DNA from: Escherichia coli
GTDB lineage: Bacteria; Pseudomonadota; Gammaproteobacteria; Enterobacterales; Enterobacteriaceae
DNA: 64,000 nt
Assembly: GCF_041886205.1 (NCBI RefSeq)
Contig: NZ_CP169029.1
Strand: one strand, 5' to 3'
Within the stretch, counting starts at the first letter, position 1; each line of letters starts with the position of its first letter. Below are positions 5,060-62,907 of this stretch, one piece after another. A program made the position numbers and the translations under genes. A model generated the notes under the pieces. The model did no database searches and was not told where the DNA came from. It was given only the letters and a program-made list of their open reading frames with translations.

Positions 5060-5180
5060 GGTTGCCGGATGTAAAATATGAAAAATATGTAGGCATGATA
5101 AGACGCGCCAGCGTCGCATCAGGCATCGAGAGCCAAATGCCAGATGCGGCGTGAACGCCTTATCTGGCCTACGAACCGAC
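5060..5180. repeat. REP/BIME cluster between ybaL and gsk
   Basis: Two or more REP units with the GCCTGATGCGACGC / GCCAGATGCGGCGTGAACGCCTTATCTGGCCTAC motif read directly. Confidence 0.6.
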
Positions 5181-8561: not shown

Positions 8562-8692
8562 TACCGCCTCTTATCGATTCAACTTGTTGATAATTGTAGC
8601 GGAAAAGTGAAGAAGAAGAACTAATTGCTGTAAGAGGTATTGCCTGAGGAGGATGAGCAGACCTGCCCGAAAGCAGATCTGCTGCGGCTTGA

Positions 8693-12488: not shown

Positions 12489-14420
12489 TCAAATGGGGCG
12501 GATACTTTCTTCATCCAGCTCCGCATCGAAAAACCGACGCAGGGTCTGAATATTATTATCCGCAATAATGGACTCGCGCGCCTGCGCAAGTTTTTCTTCG
12601 TATATCGCCTGACGCCACTCCAGCGGCGTACGCACCGCGGGATTATCATCTTCAACGATAGTCAGTTCAACCGTTGAACCTTTTAACATGCTCAACGCTT
12701 CAGCCAGTTTTTGCTGTGCACCGCGGTTGTTCAAATGCCGCTGAGAGGAGCGCAAATGCAGACATACTGCGTTGTCGCTCTCCTCTTTCCAGGCATTTAA
12801 CGCCACCTGTTCGACCAGTTTTGGTAGCGAAAGTTGGCTCACCTGTGCCGCCCACGGGTCGCGCTCAATGGCTTCTGCCGCCAGCTTCGCCGCCAGTTCC
12901 GGCGTTTTTTCATGTTCCAGCGCTTTTTTCAGCGCCTTCGGCGTGGCGACCACTTCTTTTTGCTGCATCACTGGAGTGGTAGCCTTCCAGCGATACGCTT
13001 CTTTTTTGGCTGGCGCTTTTTCCAGCGCCGATGGCACCGGACGCGCCTGAACGCGATCGGTGACCGAAGCCAGTCTTTCCAGCGCAGCGTTATTCACCGG
13101 CCGCGCGCGGGTAGCGGCTGCCGGTTCACTCTTTTTTGCTTTGGTTGCTCCCTGCACGCGCTGCAACTGCTGGCGCGCCGCCAGCACCTGGCTGGTGGTT
13201 TCCGGGAGCGGTACAGTCGGTGCCTGCTGCGGCGCTGATTGCGGTTGCGGCGGCACCTGGGTTGGCGTCATTACTGCCGTTGGCGCGACGGGCGCAAAGG
13301 ACTGGCGTGGCACTTCTGGCTCAGGCAGAGGCATACGTGGATGGAACGCCAGCGCGCGCAGCAGCGTCATCTCAACGCCCATGCGGCGGTCCGGCGCATA
13401 CGGTAATTCTTTGCGACCAATCAACAGCGTCTGATAGTAAAGCTGAATATCCGTCGGCGGTATGGTGCGCGCCAGTTCACGCATCCGCAGCTCAATGGCG
13501 GCCATGTCGTTGCCAAGTGCAGCAGGCGAAAGTTGTACCATCGCAATACGATGCAACAGGCCGAGCATTTCCACCAGCAACGCTTCCCACTCGATACCAC
13601 GGGCAGCGGCTTCATTAATCAGCGCCATTACGCGCTCGCCGTTGGCCTCGACCATCGCTTCAACCAGCGACAGCGCCTGATCGTCATCAAGCGTACCCAG
13701 CATCGCACTGACTGCCTGGGTTGAAACCTGGCCGTCACCGCTGGCAATCGCCTGGTCGGTCAGACTTAAGGCATCTCGCAGGCTGCCTTCAGCGGCGCGC
13801 GCCAGCAATTGCAACGCCCGCGGCTCGTGAGCGATATGTTCTTCGTTGAGGATGTGCTCAAGTTGATGGCGAATTTGCTCGACATCCAGCGCCTTGAGAT
13901 GAAATTGCAAACAGCGCGACAAAATCGTCACCGGCAATTTCTGTGGATCGGTCGTCGCCAGCAGAAACTTAACGTGCTCCGGCGGCTCTTCAAGGGTTTT
14001 TAACAGTGCGTTAAAGCTGTGGCGCGACAGCATATGCACTTCGTCGATCAGATAAACTTTGAAACGACCACGCGCCGGAGCGTACTGGACGTTATCCAGC
14101 AGGTCGCGGGTATCTTCAACTTTGGTGCGCGAGGCGGCGTCGATTTCAATCAGATCGACAAAGCGCCCCTGCTCGATTTCACGACAGTTATCGCACACGC
14201 CGCACGGCGTCGCGGTAATGCCGGTTTCGCAGTTTAGCCCCTTCGCCAGCAGTCGGGCGATAGAGGTTTTTCCGACGCCACGGGTGCCGGAAAAAAGATA
14301 AGCATGATGAATACGCCCTAACGACAAGCCGTTCGCCAGTGCGGTCAGCACATGTTCCTGGCCGACGACGTCAGCAAAGGTTTGTGGGCGCCATTTTCGG
14401 GCTAAGACCTGATAACTCAT
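12489..14420 (-). CDS. dnaX: DNA polymerase III tau subunit (gamma by programmed frameshift)
   Basis: 643-aa ORF with AAA+ clamp-loader motifs; recognised as DnaX. Confidence 0.96.
   Translation of the reverse strand: MSYQVLARKWRPQTFADVVGQEHVLTALANGLSLGRIHHAYLFSGTRGVGKTSIARLLAKGLNCETGITATPCGVCDNCREIEQGRFVDLIEIDAASRTKVEDTRDLLDNVQYAPARGRFKVYLIDEVHMLSRHSFNALLKTLEEPPEHVKFLLATTDPQKLPVTILSRCLQFHLKALDVEQIRHQLEHILNEEHIAHEPRALQLLARAAEGSLRDALSLTDQAIASGDGQVSTQAVSAMLGTLDDDQALSLVEAMVEANGERVMALINEAAARGIEWEALLVEMLGLLHRIAMVQLSPAALGNDMAAIELRMRELARTIPPTDIQLYYQTLLIGRKELPYAPDRRMGVEMTLLRALAFHPRMPLPEPEVPRQSFAPVAPTAVMTPTQVPPQPQSAPQQAPTVPLPETTSQVLAARQQLQRVQGATKAKKSEPAAATRARPVNNAALERLASVTDRVQARPVPSALEKAPAKKEAYRWKATTPVMQQKEVVATPKALKKALEHEKTPELAAKLAAEAIERDPWAAQVSQLSLPKLVEQVALNAWKEESDNAVCLHLRSSQRHLNNRGAQQKLAEALSMLKGSTVELTIVEDDNPAVRTPLEWRQAIYEEKLAQARESIIADNNIQTLRRFFDAELDEESIRPI
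13131..13137 (-). promoter_or_regulatory. dnaX: dnaX programmed -1 ribosomal frameshift heptamer A AAA AAG (gives gamma subunit)
   Basis: Plus-strand cttttttgc at 13131-13139 is the reverse complement of GCAAAAAAG; encoded ...AKKSEP...; GC-rich stem-loop follows on the mRNA (13101-13128). Confidence 0.8.
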
Positions 14421-20103: not shown

Positions 20104-20751
20104 TTATTCGTTAGTGGCAGGATTACGAAGCGTGGGGCACAGGAGATACATCTCCAGTAAGATGGCAACGTAATCGCGGGCTTCTTTTTTAAGATCAAAA
20201 GATTGCGGGGCAAAGAGCCAGTTTTCCATCAGGCCGGAAATATAGCCGCGCATAATAATTGCTGCGCGACGCGTCATTAAATCCGCAGGCAACATTTTCG
20301 CTTCAATACAATGTTTTAACGTTTGTTCTATACGGTCATAACTTTCCAGACAGAGATTACGTTGTGCCTGTTGCACAACAGCCATTTCTCCGACAAATTC
20401 GCATTTGTGGAATATAATCTCCATCAATAATCGACGCCGTTCTTCTGTCACCGTGGATTCAAGAACATGAATTAATATCTCTCTTAATACTGAGAGTGGA
20501 TCGCCAGGGAATTTTGCCTGATACTCAAGCTCTAGTTCACCAATATTGGATTCTGACAGTTCCCAGATCTCACTGAACAAATCCGACTTGTCTTTAAAAT
20601 GCCAGTAGATTGCACCGCGCGTAACGCCAGCTGCTTTTGCAATCTCGCCCAGCGAGGTGGATGATACCCCCTGCTGTGAGAAAAGACGTAGAGCCACATC
20701 GAGGATGTGTTGGCGCGTTTCTTGCGCTTCTTGTTTGGTTTTTCGTGCCAT
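20104..20751 (-). CDS. acrR: TetR-family repressor of acrAB
   Basis: 215-aa ORF with N-terminal TetR HTH; divergent from acrA. Confidence 0.95.
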
Positions 20752-25432: not shown

Positions 25433-25447
25433 GGTAATGACTCCAAC

Positions 25448-25951
25448 TTATTGATAGTGTTTTATGTTCAGATAATGCCCGATGACTTTGTCATGCAGCT
25501 CCACCGATTTTGAGAACGACAGCGACTTCCGTCCCAGCCGTGCCAGGTGCTGTCTCAGATTCAGGTTATGCCGCTCAATTCGCTGCGTATATCGCTTGCT
25601 GATTACGTGCAGCTTTCCCTTCAGGCGGGATTCATACAGCGGCCAGCCATCCGTCATCCATATCACCACGTCAAAGGGTGACAGCAGGCTCATAAGACGC
25701 CCCAGCGTCGCCATAGTGCGTTCACCGAATACGTGCGCAACAACCGTCTTCCGGAGCCTGTCATACGCGTAAAACAGCCAGCGCTGGCGCGATTTAGCCC
25801 CGACATAGCCCCACTGTTCGTCCATTTCCGCGCAGACGATGACGTCACTGCCCGGCTGTATGCGCGAGGTTACCGACTGCGGCCTGAGTTTTTTAAATGG
25901 CGGAAAATCGTGTTGAGGCCAACGCCCATAATGCGGGCGGTTGCCCGGCAT
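25448..25951 (-). CDS. insB: IS1 InsB' reading frame (expressed as InsAB' transposase by -1 frameshift at A6C motif)
   Basis: 167-aa frame recognised as IS1 InsB; slippery A AAA AAC motif on the minus strand at about 25887-25896 (plus-strand gttttttaaa). Confidence 0.88.
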
Positions 25952-26145
25952 CCAACGCCATTCATGGCCATATCAATGATTTTCTGGTGCGTACCGGGTT
26001 GAGAAGCGGTGTAAGTGAACTGCAGTTGCCATGTTTTACGGCAGTGAGAGCAGAGATAGCGCTGATGTCCGGCGGTGCTTTTGCCGTTACGCACCACCCC
26101 GTCAGTAGCTGAACAGGAGGGACAGCTGATAGAAACAGAAGCCAC
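25870..26145 (-). CDS. insA: IS1 InsA (transposition inhibitor / N-terminal part of InsAB' transposase)
   Basis: 91-aa [23 protein letters not shown]... zinc-finger/HTH protein, recognised as IS1 InsA. Confidence 0.92.
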
Positions 26146-26200
26146 TGGAGCACCTCAAAAACACCATCATACACTAAATCAGTAAGTTGGCAGCATCACC

Positions 26201-30726: not shown

Positions 30727-30840
30727 GGGTGGGGGCCCTGCCAGCTACATCCCGGCACACGCGTCATCTGCCTTGGCTGCTTCCTTCCGGACCTGACCTG
30801 GTAAACAGAGTAGCGTTGCGGGAGAACCAACAGAGCCCCC
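30727..30840 (-). ncRNA. ffs: 4.5S RNA (signal recognition particle RNA)
   Basis: Plus strand 30727-30840 is the exact reverse complement of the 114-nt E. coli 4.5S RNA as I recall it (GGGGGCUCUGUUGGUUCUCCCGCAACGC...GGCAGGGCCCCCACCC). Confidence 0.95.
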
Positions 30841-33035: not shown

Positions 33036-34322
33036 TTACGCGTTATAGGCATTCTCGCCGTGACTGTTGACGTCCAGCCCTTCTCGCTCCTGTTCTTCCG
33101 GCACACGCAGGCCAACCGTCAGATCCGCCAGTTTGTAGCCAATAAATGCCACCACACCGGACCAGACGATCGTAATGGCGATGCTTTCCAGCTGTACCAG
33201 CAACTGATGGCCCATCGTCACACCTTCAGCGAAGCCCACGCCGCCCAGCGAGCTGGCAGCAAAAATCCCGGTCATGATACAGCCGACAATGCCACAAACG
33301 CCGTGCACACCGAAGACATCGCAGGGATCATCCACCCGCAGCAAGCGTTTGAGCATGGTAACGCCCCACAAGCCCGCCAGACCAGCTACCACGCCGATAA
33401 TCAACGCGCCGCCAACACCAATGTAGCCACACGCTGGCGTCACGCCGACCAGACCGGCAATCGCGCCAGAACACGCCCCCAGCAGTGAAGGCTTACCACG
33501 CAGCGCCCATTCACCGAAGATCCAGCCAAGAATTGCCGCCGCCGTTGCGACCACAGTATTCACAAATGCCAGTGCTGCGATTTCATTCGCCGTGCCCGCT
33601 GACCCGGCATTAAAGCCAAACCAACCGATATAGAGAATGGCAGTCCCGGTGAAGACCATCGGCAGGTTGTGCGGTTTAAACGCCTCTTTGCCGAAGCCCA
33701 CGCGTTTGCCTACCAGATATGCGCCCACCAGACCGGCGATTGCGGCGTTAATGTGCACCACCGTGCCACCCGCGAAATCCAGTGCACCGTGAGAAGCCAG
33801 CAAACCGCCGCCCCAGACCATATGCGCAATCGGAATGTAGGAGAGCGTCAGCCATACCACCACGAAAATCAACACAGCTGAGAAGCGGATTCGTTCCGCC
33901 AGTGCTCCAACTATCAAGCCGACGGTAATGCAGGCAAACGAGCCCTGAAACGCCACGTGGATATACTGATAAATGCTGCCCATCACCGCCGTCAGTTCGA
34001 TGTTTTTTAGCATCAACCAGTTAATGTTGCCGAAGAAGTTGTTGCCCTCACCAAACGCCAGCGAGTAACCGTAAACCACCCAGAGAATACAGACCAGTGC
34101 AAACGTCACCGTCACCTGCGTCAGCATCGACAGCACGTTTTTGCCGCGAATCAACCCACCGTAAAACAGGGCAATCCCCGGAATAGTCATAAACAGCACC
34201 AGCGCAGTACAAATCATCATAAACGCATTGTCGGCTTTATCGGCCACCGCAGGTGCAGCCATTACCAGTCCCGGCAGCATCGCCAGTGAAGCAAGCCCAG
34301 TTTTTATCGTCGCTATCTTCAT
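33036..34322 (-). CDS. amtB: ammonium transporter AmtB
   Basis: 428-aa ORF with signal peptide and Amt/Rh-family TM core. Confidence 0.96.
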   Translation of the reverse strand: MKIATIKTGLASLAMLPGLVMAAPAVADKADNAFMMICTALVLFMTIPGIALFYGGLIRGKNVLSMLTQVTVTFALVCILWVVYGYSLAFGEGNNFFGNINWLMLKNIELTAVMGSIYQYIHVAFQGSFACITVGLIVGALAERIRFSAVLIFVVVWLTLSYIPIAHMVWGGGLLASHGALDFAGGTVVHINAAIAGLVGAYLVGKRVGFGKEAFKPHNLPMVFTGTAILYIGWFGFNAGSAGTANEIAALAFVNTVVATAAAILGWIFGEWALRGKPSLLGACSGAIAGLVGVTPACGYIGVGGALIIGVVAGLAGLWGVTMLKRLLRVDDPCDVFGVHGVCGIVGCIMTGIFAASSLGGVGFAEGVTMGHQLLVQLESIAITIVWSGVVAFIGYKLADLTVGLRVPEEQEREGLDVNSHGENAYNA

Positions 34323-34351
34323 TTTTCGTTCCTGTTGCTGTGTGCCAGAGA

Positions 34352-34690
34352 TTACAGCGCCGCTTCGTCGGCTTCGCCGGTACGAATACGAATGACGCGT
34401 TGCAATTCAGCGACGAAGATTTTGCCGTCGCCAATTTTTCCGGTGTAAGCCGCCTTACTGACGATATCGATCACTTCATCGAGTTGGTCATCAGCAATCG
34501 CCACATCAATTTTTACTTTTGGCAGGAAGTTGACGCTGTATTCCGCCCCCCGGTACAGCTCGGCATGCCCTTTCTGACGCCCGAAACCTTTCACTTCGGT
34601 GACGGTCAAGCCCTGAATACCAATGGAAGATAACGCTTCACGAACGTCTTCCAGCTTGAATGGTTTGATTATCACGGTCACCAGCTTCAT
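34352..34690 (-). CDS. glnK: PII nitrogen regulatory protein GlnK
   Basis: 112-aa from MKLVTVIIKPFKLEDVREAL; the ORF-track frame to 34828 is over-extended. Confidence 0.96.
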   Translation of the reverse strand: MKLVTVIIKPFKLEDVREALSSIGIQGLTVTEVKGFGRQKGHAELYRGAEYSVNFLPKVKIDVAIADDQLDEVIDIVSKAAYTGKIGDGKIFVAELQRVIRIRTGEADEAAL

Positions 34691-34743
34691 AGATCCCCTC
34701 CGGTCAGAATTCGGTAATGGTTCTGCTACACGAAGAAGGTATT

Positions 34744-34759
34744 GCAAGCGGTGTGCCAG
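34744..34759 (-). promoter_or_regulatory. sigma-54 (-24/-12) promoter of glnK-amtB: TGGCAC-N5-TTGCA
   Basis: Minus-strand TGGCACACCGCTTGCA read directly about 55 nt upstream of the glnK start; glnK-amtB is known to be NtrC/sigma-54 dependent. Confidence 0.75.
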
Positions 34760-34870
34760 AAATGAAAAACGAGAAAGAGAGCAGGAAGTTAAGAAGATTG
34801 AAAATGAAAACGCACTATGACAGTGCACAGTGCGTTACATTTTTGCACCAACGATGAAATATTGCGCTAT

Positions 34871-38417
<3,547 letters not shown>

Positions 38418-42939: not shown

Positions 42940-45385
<2,446 letters not shown>

Positions 45386-48413: not shown

Positions 48414-48600
48414 AGAGCTCTCTCTTAGTTTAATTTCCGCCAGGTAATCAGATGACACGACTGTGCTTCACGCCATCTATTAACATGTACGTCAGTATAT
48501 GGGGATGTTTCCCCCACATTCAACGCCGAGAATAGAGGAAAAATTAAAGGGGAGATAAAATCCCCCCTTTTTGGTTAACTAATTGTATGGGAATGGTTAA

Positions 48601-50624: not shown

Positions 50625-50869
50625 TTCCGTCTCCTGGATAAAATTGAAAAAACCTGCTGTACCGATTGTAACCTTATGGACGGATTATCAGCTAGTCCCT
50701 GTGTTATGGGTACGGCATCACCATATTTCAAGCATAACAATCTTTTGTTGTTACGCTAACACCGAAAGAGGCTTTTCGCACGGTTCCATGCAAAATTCAT
50801 GACAAAAAAAAACCCACCACCTGGCGGTGACGGGCCTTTGTGCGAATTTAGCGCGTTATGCTGCGTAAA

Positions 50870-53133: not shown

Positions 53134-53712
53134 ATGTTCAAAAAAATCCTCTTCCCGTTAGTTGCTCTGTTTATGCTTGCAGGATGCGCAAAACCGCCAA
53201 CAACTATTGAAGTTTCCCCGACGATTACACTGCCACAGCAGGATCCAAGCCTGATGGGCGTCACCGTAAGCATTAATGGTGCCGATCAGCGTACCGATCA
53301 GGCGCTGGCAAAAGTCACCCGCGATAATCAAATCGTTACCCTGACCGCCTCCCGCGATCTGCGTTTCCTGCTGCAAGAAGTGCTGGAAAAACAGATGACC
53401 GCGCGTGGTTACATGGTTGGTCCGAATGGCCCGGTTAATCTGCAAATCATCGTTAGCCAACTGTATGCTGACGTGTCCCAGGGCAACGTGCGCTACAACA
53501 TCGCGACCAAAGCGGATATCGCCATCATCGCTACCGCGCAGAATGGCAACAAAATGACCAAAAACTATCGTGCCAGCTACAACGTTGAAGGTGCGTTCCA
53601 GGCCTCCAACAAAAATATCGCCGATGCGGTTAACAGTGTGCTGACCGATACCATCGCTGATATGTCTCAGGACACCAGCATCCACGAATTCATCAAGCAG
53701 AACGCGCGTTAA
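53134..53712 (+). CDS. yajG: lipoprotein YajG
   Basis: 192-aa from MFKKILFPLVALFMLAGC (lipobox); the ORF-track frame from 52975 is over-extended. Confidence 0.9.
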   Translation: MFKKILFPLVALFMLAGCAKPPTTIEVSPTITLPQQDPSLMGVTVSINGADQRTDQALAKVTRDNQIVTLTASRDLRFLLQEVLEKQMTARGYMVGPNGPVNLQIIVSQLYADVSQGNVRYNIATKADIAIIATAQNGNKMTKNYRASYNVEGAFQASNKNIADAVNSVLTDTIADMSQDTSIHEFIKQNAR

Positions 53713-60527: not shown

Positions 60528-60544
60528 ATTGTCTGAGATCAGAG

Positions 60545-60563
60545 ATACGGCTAATAACCGTAT
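60545..60563. promoter_or_regulatory. inverted repeat IR-A (ATACGG-N7-CCGTAT), candidate operator upstream of the antitoxin promoter -35
   Basis: Perfect 6-bp arms with 7-bp spacer read directly; same architecture as IR-B 55 bp downstream. Confidence 0.5.
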
Positions 60564-60566
60564 GTC

Positions 60567-60595
60567 TTGACAGAGTGAGCAGATGAACATAAATT
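60567..60595 (+). promoter_or_regulatory. candidate sigma-70 promoter of the antitoxin-toxin operon (-35 TTGACA, 17-bp spacer, -10 TAAATT)
   Basis: Consensus -35 hexamer at 60567-60572 and plausible -10 at 60590-60595, about 75 nt upstream of the antitoxin start. Confidence 0.5.
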
Positions 60596-60599
60596 AATC

Positions 60600-60618
60600 A
60601 TACGGTTGATAGCCGTAT
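60600..60618. promoter_or_regulatory. inverted repeat IR-B (ATACGG-N7-CCGTAT), candidate operator overlapping the predicted transcription start
   Basis: Perfect 6-bp arms with 7-bp spacer just downstream of the -10; contains the spurious ATG of the ORF-track frame at 60606. Confidence 0.5.
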
Positions 60619-60671
60619 TATGTATGAGATCGACTCCCTACGATTTCATTCAGTTAATCAAAGAGGTCATA

Positions 60672-60983
60672 ATGCCTGGAAAAACAGCCACTCTACCCGA
60701 TGTCGATAAAACGCTGAAAAATGCGCGGGTCGAACTCAAAACTAGTCCCGACGCCAAAAACAAACTTCGTGAAGCTGCGCAAGCCGTTGGGGTAGATTTA
60801 AGCGCTTTTATTTTGAGCGCTGCTATGGAACGCGCCGAAAGTGTGCTTGATAACCAACGTCGCCGTGAGCTTTCGAATCAAAGCTGGGAACTGATGAACC
60901 AACTCATCGCTGAACCTGCTCAACCGACGCTCGCCCTCAAGGCGTTAATGAAAAGGAAAAACAGCGATGGTCGACAAGCATGA
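60672..60983 (+). CDS. ribbon-helix-helix (DUF1778-like) antitoxin of a GNAT-type toxin-antitoxin pair
   Basis: 103-aa from MPGKTATLPDVDK, RBS AAAGAGG 6-7 nt upstream; RHH-like N-terminus (RVELKTSPDAKNKLREAAQAVGVDLSAFILSAAMERAESVL) resembling TacA/AtaR/KacA-type antitoxins; overlaps the toxin gene by 17 nt. Confidence 0.8.
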   Translation: MPGKTATLPDVDKTLKNARVELKTSPDAKNKLREAAQAVGVDLSAFILSAAMERAESVLDNQRRRELSNQSWELMNQLIAEPAQPTLALKALMKRKNSDGRQA

Positions 60984-61509
60984 AGAGATTACTCTGCCCA
61001 TAGTCCTCTCCTGTAATTATCAGTCTGATATTACTTATCCTGGGCAAAAACAGTTTGATTGCGGTAACCCTGTTATCGATAAATTTGTACGCGCATCGCT
61101 AAAGAAAAGTGTGCGTAATAGCGACTGTGCGGCTAAAGCACTTATTGACAGACAAAGTGGTGAACTGATCGGCATCTGTACTTTTACGGCATATTCGCTG
61201 GAAAAACAACGCGTTTCTGGCGTCCTTCAGGGTTCACAACCTTCAGAAATTGGTGTTGTCAGATTAGTCATGTTGGGGGTAGCACGGAAGTATCAAAAGC
61301 GGGGCTTTGGTCAGGACCTACTATGTGATTTTTTTGAACATGTAAAAATAATTCACCAGGCATTACCAATTAAAGGGGTTTATCTTGATGCTGACCCTGC
61401 CGCCATTAATTTTTATGCTCGTCTCGGCTTTGTTCAGCTTTCAGCGACACCAAATGCTTTTGGTGCTGTACCTATGTTTTTGGCGATTCAGCATATTCTC
61501 GCGGCTTAG
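60967..61509 (+). CDS. GNAT-family acetyltransferase toxin (TacT/AtaT/ItaT/KacT-like, probable aminoacyl-tRNA acetyltransferase)
   Basis: 180-aa ORF with acetyl-CoA-binding motif A (VRLVMLGVARKYQKRGFG), motif B (AINFYARLGF) and N-terminal FDCGNPVIDKFV typical of GNAT toxins; immediately downstream of and overlapping an RHH antitoxin. Confidence 0.85.
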   Translation: MVDKHEEITLPIVLSCNYQSDITYPGQKQFDCGNPVIDKFVRASLKKSVRNSDCAAKALIDRQSGELIGICTFTAYSLEKQRVSGVLQGSQPSEIGVVRLVMLGVARKYQKRGFGQDLLCDFFEHVKIIHQALPIKGVYLDADPAAINFYARLGFVQLSATPNAFGAVPMFLAIQHILAA

Positions 61510-61564
61510 ATTATTATCGCCACCCGCCAGGGCAAGTTTTGCCTCAGCCGGGGGCTGAGCAGCG

Positions 61565-62500
61565 TTACCACTTTTGTTCAATTGCCCCCGCTTTCAGCAA
61601 CTCCACATCCTTGCCGTTAATGGTTGCCGTTGCGGCAACGATTGTGGTCCTTACAGTTGCACAAGATTTTCGCTCAAATTCCGGTTTATAAAGAATAAGA
61701 GACGAATTACTGGTAAATGAACCAAATAGGTAATCAGTAAAGCTAATATTCAGCCGGTTTAAACCGAAAGGCGCGAAGCCAACCGTTTGGTTAATCTCCT
61801 TACCGGATGGGCGACGAATGCTGAATGTCACGCGAAGGTTGGCCACTTCGCCTAATTTATTGGTGGTGGCGAAGAGGCTATCCATGCAGGAAAAACCTTC
61901 ATCTAAAAAATTATCCCGCATCCCAGAACGGGTAACCGTGATCACGGGTAACGTATCGTCAACCGTTTTTCTGTCAATCATGTCTTTTCGACAAGTAGCC
62001 AGAAAGTCTTCCGGGCCACCATAAATGTGGACACCTTTATCAAGATATTCCTTCGCTTTCTTACAATCTACCTCAACATACTGACCATTGGCGTACATCA
62101 TGCCCAACCTGGACCATGCTAAATTCACACCGTATTGCGCGGCCTGATTAAATAGCGCATACGCTTTGGCATAATCCACCCGCACCTGCTCGCCGTCGTA
62201 GTAGATACTCCCCAGCGCTAACGGTGCTTCTCTGTCACCGTGTTTAGCGGCTAACTCGAACCATTTAATCGCTTCCTGAACATCAGGTTTGGTATCATAG
62301 CGAGGCTGATAATATTCCCAGCCTAACAGGCTCTGCGCGTCGGCACCCCCCGATTCAGCCATTTTATGCAGTGTATTTATAACATTGGGCGCAGGTTTAC
62401 CACCGTATATGCTGTCATACAATTCATGTGCTTTCTCGCTTGCCACCACGCCTGGTGAAACTATTAGCATTAAAGAAAATAGTATTCTTTTAGTTAACAT
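61565..62500 (-). CDS. secreted Sel1-like repeat (TPR-like) protein with uncharacterised C-terminal domain of about 150 aa
   Basis: 311-aa from MLTKRILFSLMLIVSPGVVASE (Sec signal peptide, AAAGG RBS upstream); about three Sel1-like repeats (e.g. AIKWFELAAKHGDREAPLALGSIYYDG, YAKAYALFNQAAQYGVNLAWSRLGMMYANGQ); C-terminal half not recognised; the ORF-track start at 62560 is probably over-extended. Confidence 0.8.
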   Translation of the reverse strand: MLTKRILFSLMLIVSPGVVASEKAHELYDSIYGGKPAPNVINTLHKMAESGGADAQSLLGWEYYQPRYDTKPDVQEAIKWFELAAKHGDREAPLALGSIYYDGEQVRVDYAKAYALFNQAAQYGVNLAWSRLGMMYANGQYVEVDCKKAKEYLDKGVHIYGGPEDFLATCRKDMIDRKTVDDTLPVITVTRSGMRDNFLDEGFSCMDSLFATTNKLGEVANLRVTFSIRRPSGKEINQTVGFAPFGLNRLNISFTDYLFGSFTSNSSLILYKPEFERKSCATVRTTIVAATATINGKDVELLKAGAIEQKW

Positions 62501-62907
62501 GTATACCTTTATGTTCTCTCTGTCATATATTTCCATAATAATTAACCACCAAACATCCATTTAATGAATAAATACAGTGCCATAAAGGCCCAAGTAATAA
62601 GCACACATTTAACCTGAAACATTATCATCGATGTCACCAAATCGTTTATTTAGTGAGATAAAAATAGCATGTTCGTAAGATAAAAAATGCACATAGCAAT
62701 CAAGAAATAATATTATTACTTTTGATGTAAAACTATTTAGCTTTAAGATTCATTTTTTTCAACATATAGAGCATTCATTTTATGAATGCAAAATAAACAT
62801 ACCTGACACACAAACTATTCTCCTCTGTAATATTTTCTCATTAACACTCTGTTTACCCAACATGCGCTCCGCACTACACTATGTGGGCATTTTTTTAAGG
62901 GGTGGTA

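Follow-up and report, generated by a model that had tools for sequence, protein, structure and literature searches.

The 180-bp region between mdlB and glnK is almost certainly glnKp, the single nitrogen-regulated σ54/NtrC promoter of the Escherichia coli glnK-amtB operon. It occupies exactly positions 34691-34870 of the window, the whole 64,000-nucleotide stretch of E. coli DNA that was analyzed, in which the genes follow the order mdlB, glnK, amtB on the minus strand. The open reading frames and the K-12 annotation place the upstream gene mdlB at 34871-36652 (−), with its stop codon at 34871-34873. The same combination of evidence places glnK, encoding the 112-amino-acid PII-2 nitrogen regulator, at 34352-34690 (−) with its ATG at 34690, and the co-transcribed ammonium transporter gene amtB at 33036-34322 (−). 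A glnK-amtB promoter with an NtrC enhancer is already known, and the operon has been described as having a single promoter (PMC4958250). A 701-bp query across the spacer finds matches in 5423 of 5426 complete E. coli genomes, where the genes are annotated mdlB, glnK and amtB; this bears out the assignment to glnK-amtB in an earlier, sequence-only reading of the region. The whole window is the reverse complement of K-12 ~445.6-506.6 kb at ~99% identity and derives from a non-K-12 strain. Its spacer differs from that of K-12 MG1655 at one base, a T at 34797 (A in K-12) inside the segment that would loop between enhancer and promoter, and a second difference in the same 241-base alignment falls within mdlB. 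Against the complete E. coli genomes that match best (99.9% identity across the 701 bp), glnK carries one synonymous change at 34609 (Leu28, CTG to TTG).

The σ54 core promoter, TGGCAC-ACCGC-TTGCA (TGGCACACCGCTTGCA), lies at 34743-34758 (−), with the −24 GG at 34757-34756 and the −12 GC at 34745-34744. With up to 1 mismatch allowed, the 64-kb window contains no other match, and the number of exact TGGCAC-N5-TTGCA matches expected from dinucleotide shuffles is 0.05. The sequence-only reading had reported an exact element of this form on the minus strand. The element and its strand stand, but its position, given as 34744-34759, was one base off. A matrix scan for RpoN sites, which that reading had proposed as a check, agrees with the assignment. 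The matrix was built from 131 published ChIP-seq motifs, with the four lying in this window left out, and it scores the glnK element at 14.55 bits, rank 2 in the window and near the median of bound sites (14.3). Ranks 3-5 are the published high-stringency sites at yajG, clpP and acrR, all of them excluded from the matrix, and the top five scores in the window all belong to ChIP-supported sites.

From the motif geometry, we infer a transcription start at the C at 34732 (−), which lies 12 nt past the −12 C and leaves a leader of 42 nt. The start has likewise been predicted 42 nt from glnK (PMC4591121 Table 1), and the status of the promoter in EcoCyc as of 2015 was only ‘predicted’. The literature searched yielded no experimentally mapped glnK 5′ end. 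Among the entries listed in the Cappable-seq tables there is no glnK start nearby, which is uninformative, as the promoter is off in nitrogen-rich media. Within the leader, a Shine-Dalgarno region (CGGAGGGG) can be read from the sequence at 34695-34702 (−), 4 nt before the ATG, and a search against Rfam found no known RNA family there.

Published data on the near-identical K-12 sequence establish σ54 occupancy, NtrC occupancy and NtrC dependence. In the σ54 ChIP-seq study of Bonocora et al. 2015, site OS03 has the motif CTGGCACACCGCTTGCA and a signal 18-fold above threshold; its center, 471761 (U00096.2), corresponds to window position 34751, and its predicted start is 42 nt from glnK. The K-12 glnKp is thus the same locus with the same motif, its spacer differs at one base, and nothing functional differs. 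A published conservation table reports that the σ54 element scores well in 19 of 21 genomes. Brown et al. found an NtrC ChIP-seq peak of 39.7-fold at glnK-amtB, and in their glnG deletion glnK mRNA was not readily detected, while complementation restored it. In the gSELEX data of Shimada et al., the mdlB-glnK spacer gives an RpoN holoenzyme peak of 61% and an NtrC peak of 56%. Schumacher et al. describe glnKp as a ‘simpler’ promoter that depends solely on NtrC~P, with NtrC-specific activity 400-fold higher under ammonium starvation than under ammonium-rich conditions. The published NtrC-dependent mRNA and starvation activity back the control by nitrogen limitation that the sequence-only reading had ascribed to the operon. 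The NtrC ChIP interval of Brown et al. maps to window 34691-34771, covering the core promoter and the leader at ~40 bp from the proximal dyad described below. Limited resolution, or cross-linking by way of the loop, could account for this position; NtrC ChIP-seq and gSELEX resolve ~100 bp and do not distinguish individual NtrC sites. The glnH and gltI intervals in the same study likewise lie within ~40 bp of the published σ54 motif centers.

Upstream of the core promoter, a putative proximal NtrC site (TGCACTGTCATAGTGCG) lies at 34811-34827 (−), its center at −87 from the predicted start. It agrees at 10 of 14 positions with TGCACCA-N3-TGGTGCA (4/14 mismatches), a weak match in which the GCAC-N7-GTGC core (34812-34826) is intact. 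On the plus strand, the dyad string gcactatgacagtgcacagtgc noted earlier is present, at 34812-34833 and not, as had been written, near 34815-34840. Farther upstream, a distal NtrC-like element can be read in two ways, each with 5 or 6 of 14 mismatches to the NtrC consensus. Reading A (ATTTCATCGTTGGTGCA) lies at 34844-34860 (−), centered at −120 and 33 bp from the proximal site; its right half, TGGTGCA, is perfect and its left half is degenerate, and the Citrobacter homologue is ATCAACAATCTGGTGCA. Reading B (TGCAAAAATGTAACGCA) lies at 34831-34847 (−), centered at −107 and 20 bp from the proximal site. Because the two readings share TGCA, only one of them could be occupied at a time, and both are candidates.

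Whereas the promoter element is significant by itself, the dyads needed further evidence. The core GCAC-N7-GTGC occurs twice in the window, the other copy lying inside lon, versus 1.63 expected, and was therefore rejected as a stand-alone statistic; it is meaningful only by its position, ~87 bp upstream of the σ54 start, and by its conservation. The scan for NtrC sites that had been suggested alongside the RpoN scan gave a divided answer. A search with the full consensus TGCACCAnnnTGGTGCA at ≤3 mismatches returned 7 matches in the window and none at the glnK locus. We therefore used tests based on the core dyad and on orthologs, and in the orthologs 17-mers of the NtrC type are enriched.

For the ortholog comparison, 120 Enterobacterales loci were gathered with a degenerate pattern covering glnK codons 1-16, which kept the sampling free of bias toward the promoter. 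Sufficient upstream DNA was available for 119 of them, and 118 of these carry TGGCA[CT]-N5-TTGC, in which the N5 varies freely; the element begins in most cases 64-71 nt ahead of the ATG (68 nt in the window). In one locus, from Kluyvera genomosp. 3, the strict σ54 motif is absent within 300 bp upstream of glnK. The upstream neighbor is mdlB in 110 of 121 Enterobacterales loci, and the mdlB-glnK spacer ranges from 178 to 876 bp, with the 180 bp of E. coli near the minimum. Unusually long spacers, which may contain insertions, occur in Pseudocitrobacter (876 bp) and Yersinia similis (663 bp). Upstream of the promoter, NtrC-type 17-mers with ≤4 mismatches number 1.30 per locus versus 0.042 in shuffles, a 31-fold enrichment. 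The letters of GCAC (positions 2-5) and GTGC (positions 13-16) are unchanged in 107 or more of the 111 promoter-proximal sites, while the three bases at the center vary. When mismatch counts are followed relative to the proximal site in 110 orthologs, they dip sharply only at offsets −20 and −33, against a background of 10-12. At −20 the mean is 6.3 mismatches, with ≤6 mismatches in 76/110 loci and a TGCAC-type left half in Pantoea, Serratia and Yersinia. At −33 the mean is 6.7, and the second element is kept in 57/110 loci. Phylogenetic footprinting thus speaks for the promoter as well as for the NtrC sites upstream of it. The earlier suggestion that the upstream dyads fit an NtrC enhancer architecture finds its support in this footprint, though the consensus matches are weak.

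The footprint also has a regular geometry. Across genera, the centers of the proximal sites fall into six classes, at −87, −97, −108, −118, −130 and −141, separated by steps of 10.1-11.9 bp with a best period of 10.9 bp (p = 0.0026 at class level). Most widespread is the −141 class; several genera of Enterobacteriaceae have shorter distances, with Escherichia and Leclercia at −87. The enhancer-promoter distance is therefore quantized in whole helical turns across Enterobacterales. The E. coli proximal site lies nearest the promoter and, with its 4 mismatches, is one of the weakest matches to the consensus. In the literature searched we found no earlier report of helical quantization for glnK. 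Since tolerance of whole-turn changes has already been reported for the Vibrio qrr genes, the phasing at glnK, a computational observation, is a mildly new example of a known rule. In that study (Brunwasser-Meirom et al. 2016, 61 genes), the σ54 enhancers of Vibrio qrr likewise differ between species by distance steps of about one turn; the systems differ in the regulon (NtrC/glnK versus LuxO/qrr) and in the order, here Enterobacterales. Between enhancer and promoter in the window lies a pyrimidine-rich segment (TTTTCATTTTCAATCTTCTTAACTTCCTGCTCTCTTTCTCGTTTTTCATTTC; 34759-34810 (−), defined from the sequence), within which the IHF consensus has no match at ≤1 mismatch.

These features suggest how glnKp would work. 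σ54 RNA polymerase would bind TGGCAC-N5-TTGCA (34743-34758, −) as a closed complex that is unable to open alone. Under nitrogen limitation, phosphorylated NtrC would bind a two-part enhancer, made of the proximal site at −87 and a second site at −107 and/or −120. NtrC would then oligomerize on the enhancer, reach the polymerase by looping the ~50 bp of pyrimidine-rich DNA without IHF, and spend ATP to open the promoter, so that transcription would begin at ~34732 and yield the 42-nt leader. The 17-mers contacted by NtrC and the looping geometry, like the exact start, are what we infer from motif positions. The closest comparison within E. coli is glnAp2, with NtrC sites at −108 and −140. Both promoters have a σ54 core and two dyads on the same helical face, and glnKp, like glnAp2, would be activated by looping without IHF. 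In contrast to glnAp2, the glnK sites are closer (−87 and −107/−120), lie 20 or 33 bp apart instead of 32, and match the consensus more weakly, and an overlapping σ70 promoter was not found at glnK. In work attributed to Atkinson and colleagues in 2002, glnK is said to turn on later than glnA, only at high NtrC~P. The poor matches of the E. coli sites fit such late activation.

Several other explanations of the region have to be weighed against, or added to, glnKp. It is extremely improbable that the σ54 motif matches by chance or marks a non-productive σ54 site, with glnK-amtB driven from elsewhere. In favor of this view, many E. coli σ54 ChIP sites, including many intragenic ones, have no known productive promoter, and neither the literature nor the Cappable-seq tables gave a mapped start for glnK. 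However, the chance expectation for the exact motif is only 0.05, its orientation and 42-nt distance to glnK are as expected, the −24/−12 element is kept in 118/119 loci while the spacer varies, glnK mRNA is NtrC-dependent and induced by nitrogen starvation in published work, and no alternative σ70-like promoter was found in 34200-35300. The rarity of the motif, its conservation and the NtrC-dependent mRNA effectively refute the view. Much more weight attaches to the possibility, which we judge evenly balanced between true and false, that the dyads act chiefly, or additionally, as the intrinsic terminator of the mdlA-mdlB operon, in which AACGCACUGUG...CAUAGUGCGUU followed by UUCAUUUUCA stops read-through. 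In the dual version of this idea, one and the same DNA is the NtrC enhancer and its transcript is the terminator. A terminator scan predicts a terminator-like hairpin at 34799-34836 (−) that begins 34 nt past the mdlB stop codon and overlaps the NtrC sites. Its stem, AACGCACTGTG/CATAGTGCGTT (34836-34809), has 11 pairs and is followed by the U-rich tail TTCATTTTCA (34808-34799); the 46-nt segment folds at −17.3 kcal/mol (z = −4.65), and none of 200 shuffles is as stable. In the orthologs, a T-run of at least 7/8 stands directly 3′ of the proximal site in 55/111 loci, at any promoter distance from −87 to −141; loci from Enterobacter, Citrobacter, Salmonella and Escherichia belong to this group. 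Where at least 6/8 T follow the site, its right half ends in a stem-strengthening G in 57/60 loci, versus 21/51 loci elsewhere, although this association is confounded by phylogeny. Other observations weigh against a terminator. The U-tract of the tail (UUUUCAUUUUC) is interrupted by CA, and the supplements of two Term-seq papers have no mdlB/glnK entry and no coordinate 47247x-47250x among the entries listed, mdlAB being weakly expressed. Beyond mere complementarity, the specific letters GCAC and GTGC are conserved, and they and their phasing are kept in genera that have no T-run (Pantoea, Serratia, Yersinia). The site is also phased relative to the promoter, and the region is bound by NtrC in published work. 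As an exclusive explanation of the dyads, the terminator fails, since letters and phasing are kept in genera without the T-run; the predicted hairpin may add to the NtrC enhancer but cannot replace it. The apparent overlap between the two, as seen in these computations, is a mildly new observation.

The region could also be a translational insulator, a view we find plausible while leaning slightly against it. Here, CT-rich stretches, notably CUUCUUCG, would pair with the glnK Shine-Dalgarno on RNA reading through from mdlB, and GlnK and AmtB would be made only from the σ54 transcript, which is without the CT-rich stretch. This anti-Shine-Dalgarno stretch lies at 34731-34738 (−), covering −6 to +2, and would be present only on RNA reading through from upstream. 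The idea goes back to Levy et al. 2017 (bioRxiv 10.1101/086108), for whose insulators in σ54 promoters glnKp is the founding example. They found that placing 50 bp of glnKp ahead of a reporter silences it ~10-fold on read-through RNA, in a manner that is rpoN-independent and orientation-dependent, and that mutations in a 7-nt CT-rich region centered at −4 relieve the silencing. Those experiments, however, relied on synthetic constructs whose ribosome-binding site was foreign. The predicted pairing is also obtained with the native sequence: in the predicted fold of the read-through RNA, CUUCUUCG (34738-34731) pairs with the Shine-Dalgarno (34702-34695), and the predicted accessibility of the latter drops from 0.59 in the native σ54 transcript to 0.038 in the read-through RNA. 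Among the controls, composition-matched shuffles have a mean of 0.25 and reach a value this low in 5% of cases, and the reverse complement scores 0.53. In the set of 119 orthologs, by contrast, the native 60 nt upstream give 0.289 versus 0.306 for composition-matched shuffles (p = 0.2) and beat only their reverse complement. This shuffle control led us to reject the anti-Shine-Dalgarno structure as a conserved element. Since the real sequences do no better than shuffled ones, the predicted masking is best ascribed to pyrimidine-rich composition in general and not to any conserved structure, and in this respect our ortholog data differ from the specific structure in the picture of Levy et al. 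A working hairpin terminator would, in addition, leave little read-through RNA to insulate.

With glnKp as the primary function of the spacer, the additional signals can be combined into one tentative scheme, in which we place a little less belief than doubt. In Enterobacteriaceae, the proximal half of the enhancer may have been adapted also as the stem-loop of an mdlAB intrinsic terminator; signs of this are half-sites that end in a stem-strengthening G and a T5-T8 run added right behind the site. On this scheme a single 40-bp segment would serve activator binding as DNA and termination as RNA, with the CT-rich anti-Shine-Dalgarno stretch alongside as a second barrier to read-through. The module would have been shifted toward the promoter in whole turns, down to the minimum of −87 in Escherichia.

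Re-identifying a textbook regulatory region adds no new biology. Its value is that of a positive control, in that a reading from the letters alone placed a real σ54 promoter and its enhancer, the promoter to within one base. The glnK enhancer is also a clean natural case of a whole-turn spacing constraint across one bacterial order. Within the very short 180-bp spacer of E. coli, three signals appear to share the same bases: activator binding, a terminator-like hairpin and a stretch that counters the ribosome-binding site. Such overlapping signals matter when ‘glnKp’ is excised for synthetic circuits or when the spacer is edited.

Elsewhere in the window, the best match to the σ54 matrix is CTGGCATTATTAATGCT at 43161-43177 (+), which scores 16.5 bits, lies antisense inside ybaV and has the same sequence in K-12. 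As an unreported σ54 site it was rejected, being present in the low-stringency (not the high-stringency) ChIP-seq list of Bonocora et al. Other published σ54 ChIP-seq sites in the window are IA04, antisense in yajG (53269-53285, −), OS02, upstream of clpP (50789-50805, −), and IA05, antisense in acrR (20710-20726, +). Segments of the window also differ from K-12 in length. At 25434-26200, between tomB and acrB, an insertion of ~768 bp is an IS1 copy that encodes InsA (Pfam HTH_Tnp_IS1 and Zn_ribbon_InsA) and an InsB-like open reading frame; an alignment overlap of 10 bp suggests a target-site duplication, and the copy lies near the promoter side of hha-tomB and the 3′ end of acrB. At 60531-62900, a strain-specific insertion of ~2.3 kb takes the place of ~100 bp from the yajR-cyoE spacer of K-12. 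Its genes code for a TacA-like antitoxin (PF08681), for an overlapping GNAT acetyltransferase, a candidate toxin of the TacT type, and, on the other strand, for a Sel1-repeat protein. The adk-hemH spacer (8639-8691) is 53 bp long versus 158 bp in K-12 (497820-497978), which may be variation in a repetitive extragenic element. Finally, Rfam matches at gathering score comprise the sraA sRNA at 48485-48580 (+), the dnaX frameshift element at 13092-13156 (−), naRNA4 at 5092-5169 (−) and the 4.5S SRP RNA at 30736-30832 (−), all of them expected in this part of the E. coli chromosome.
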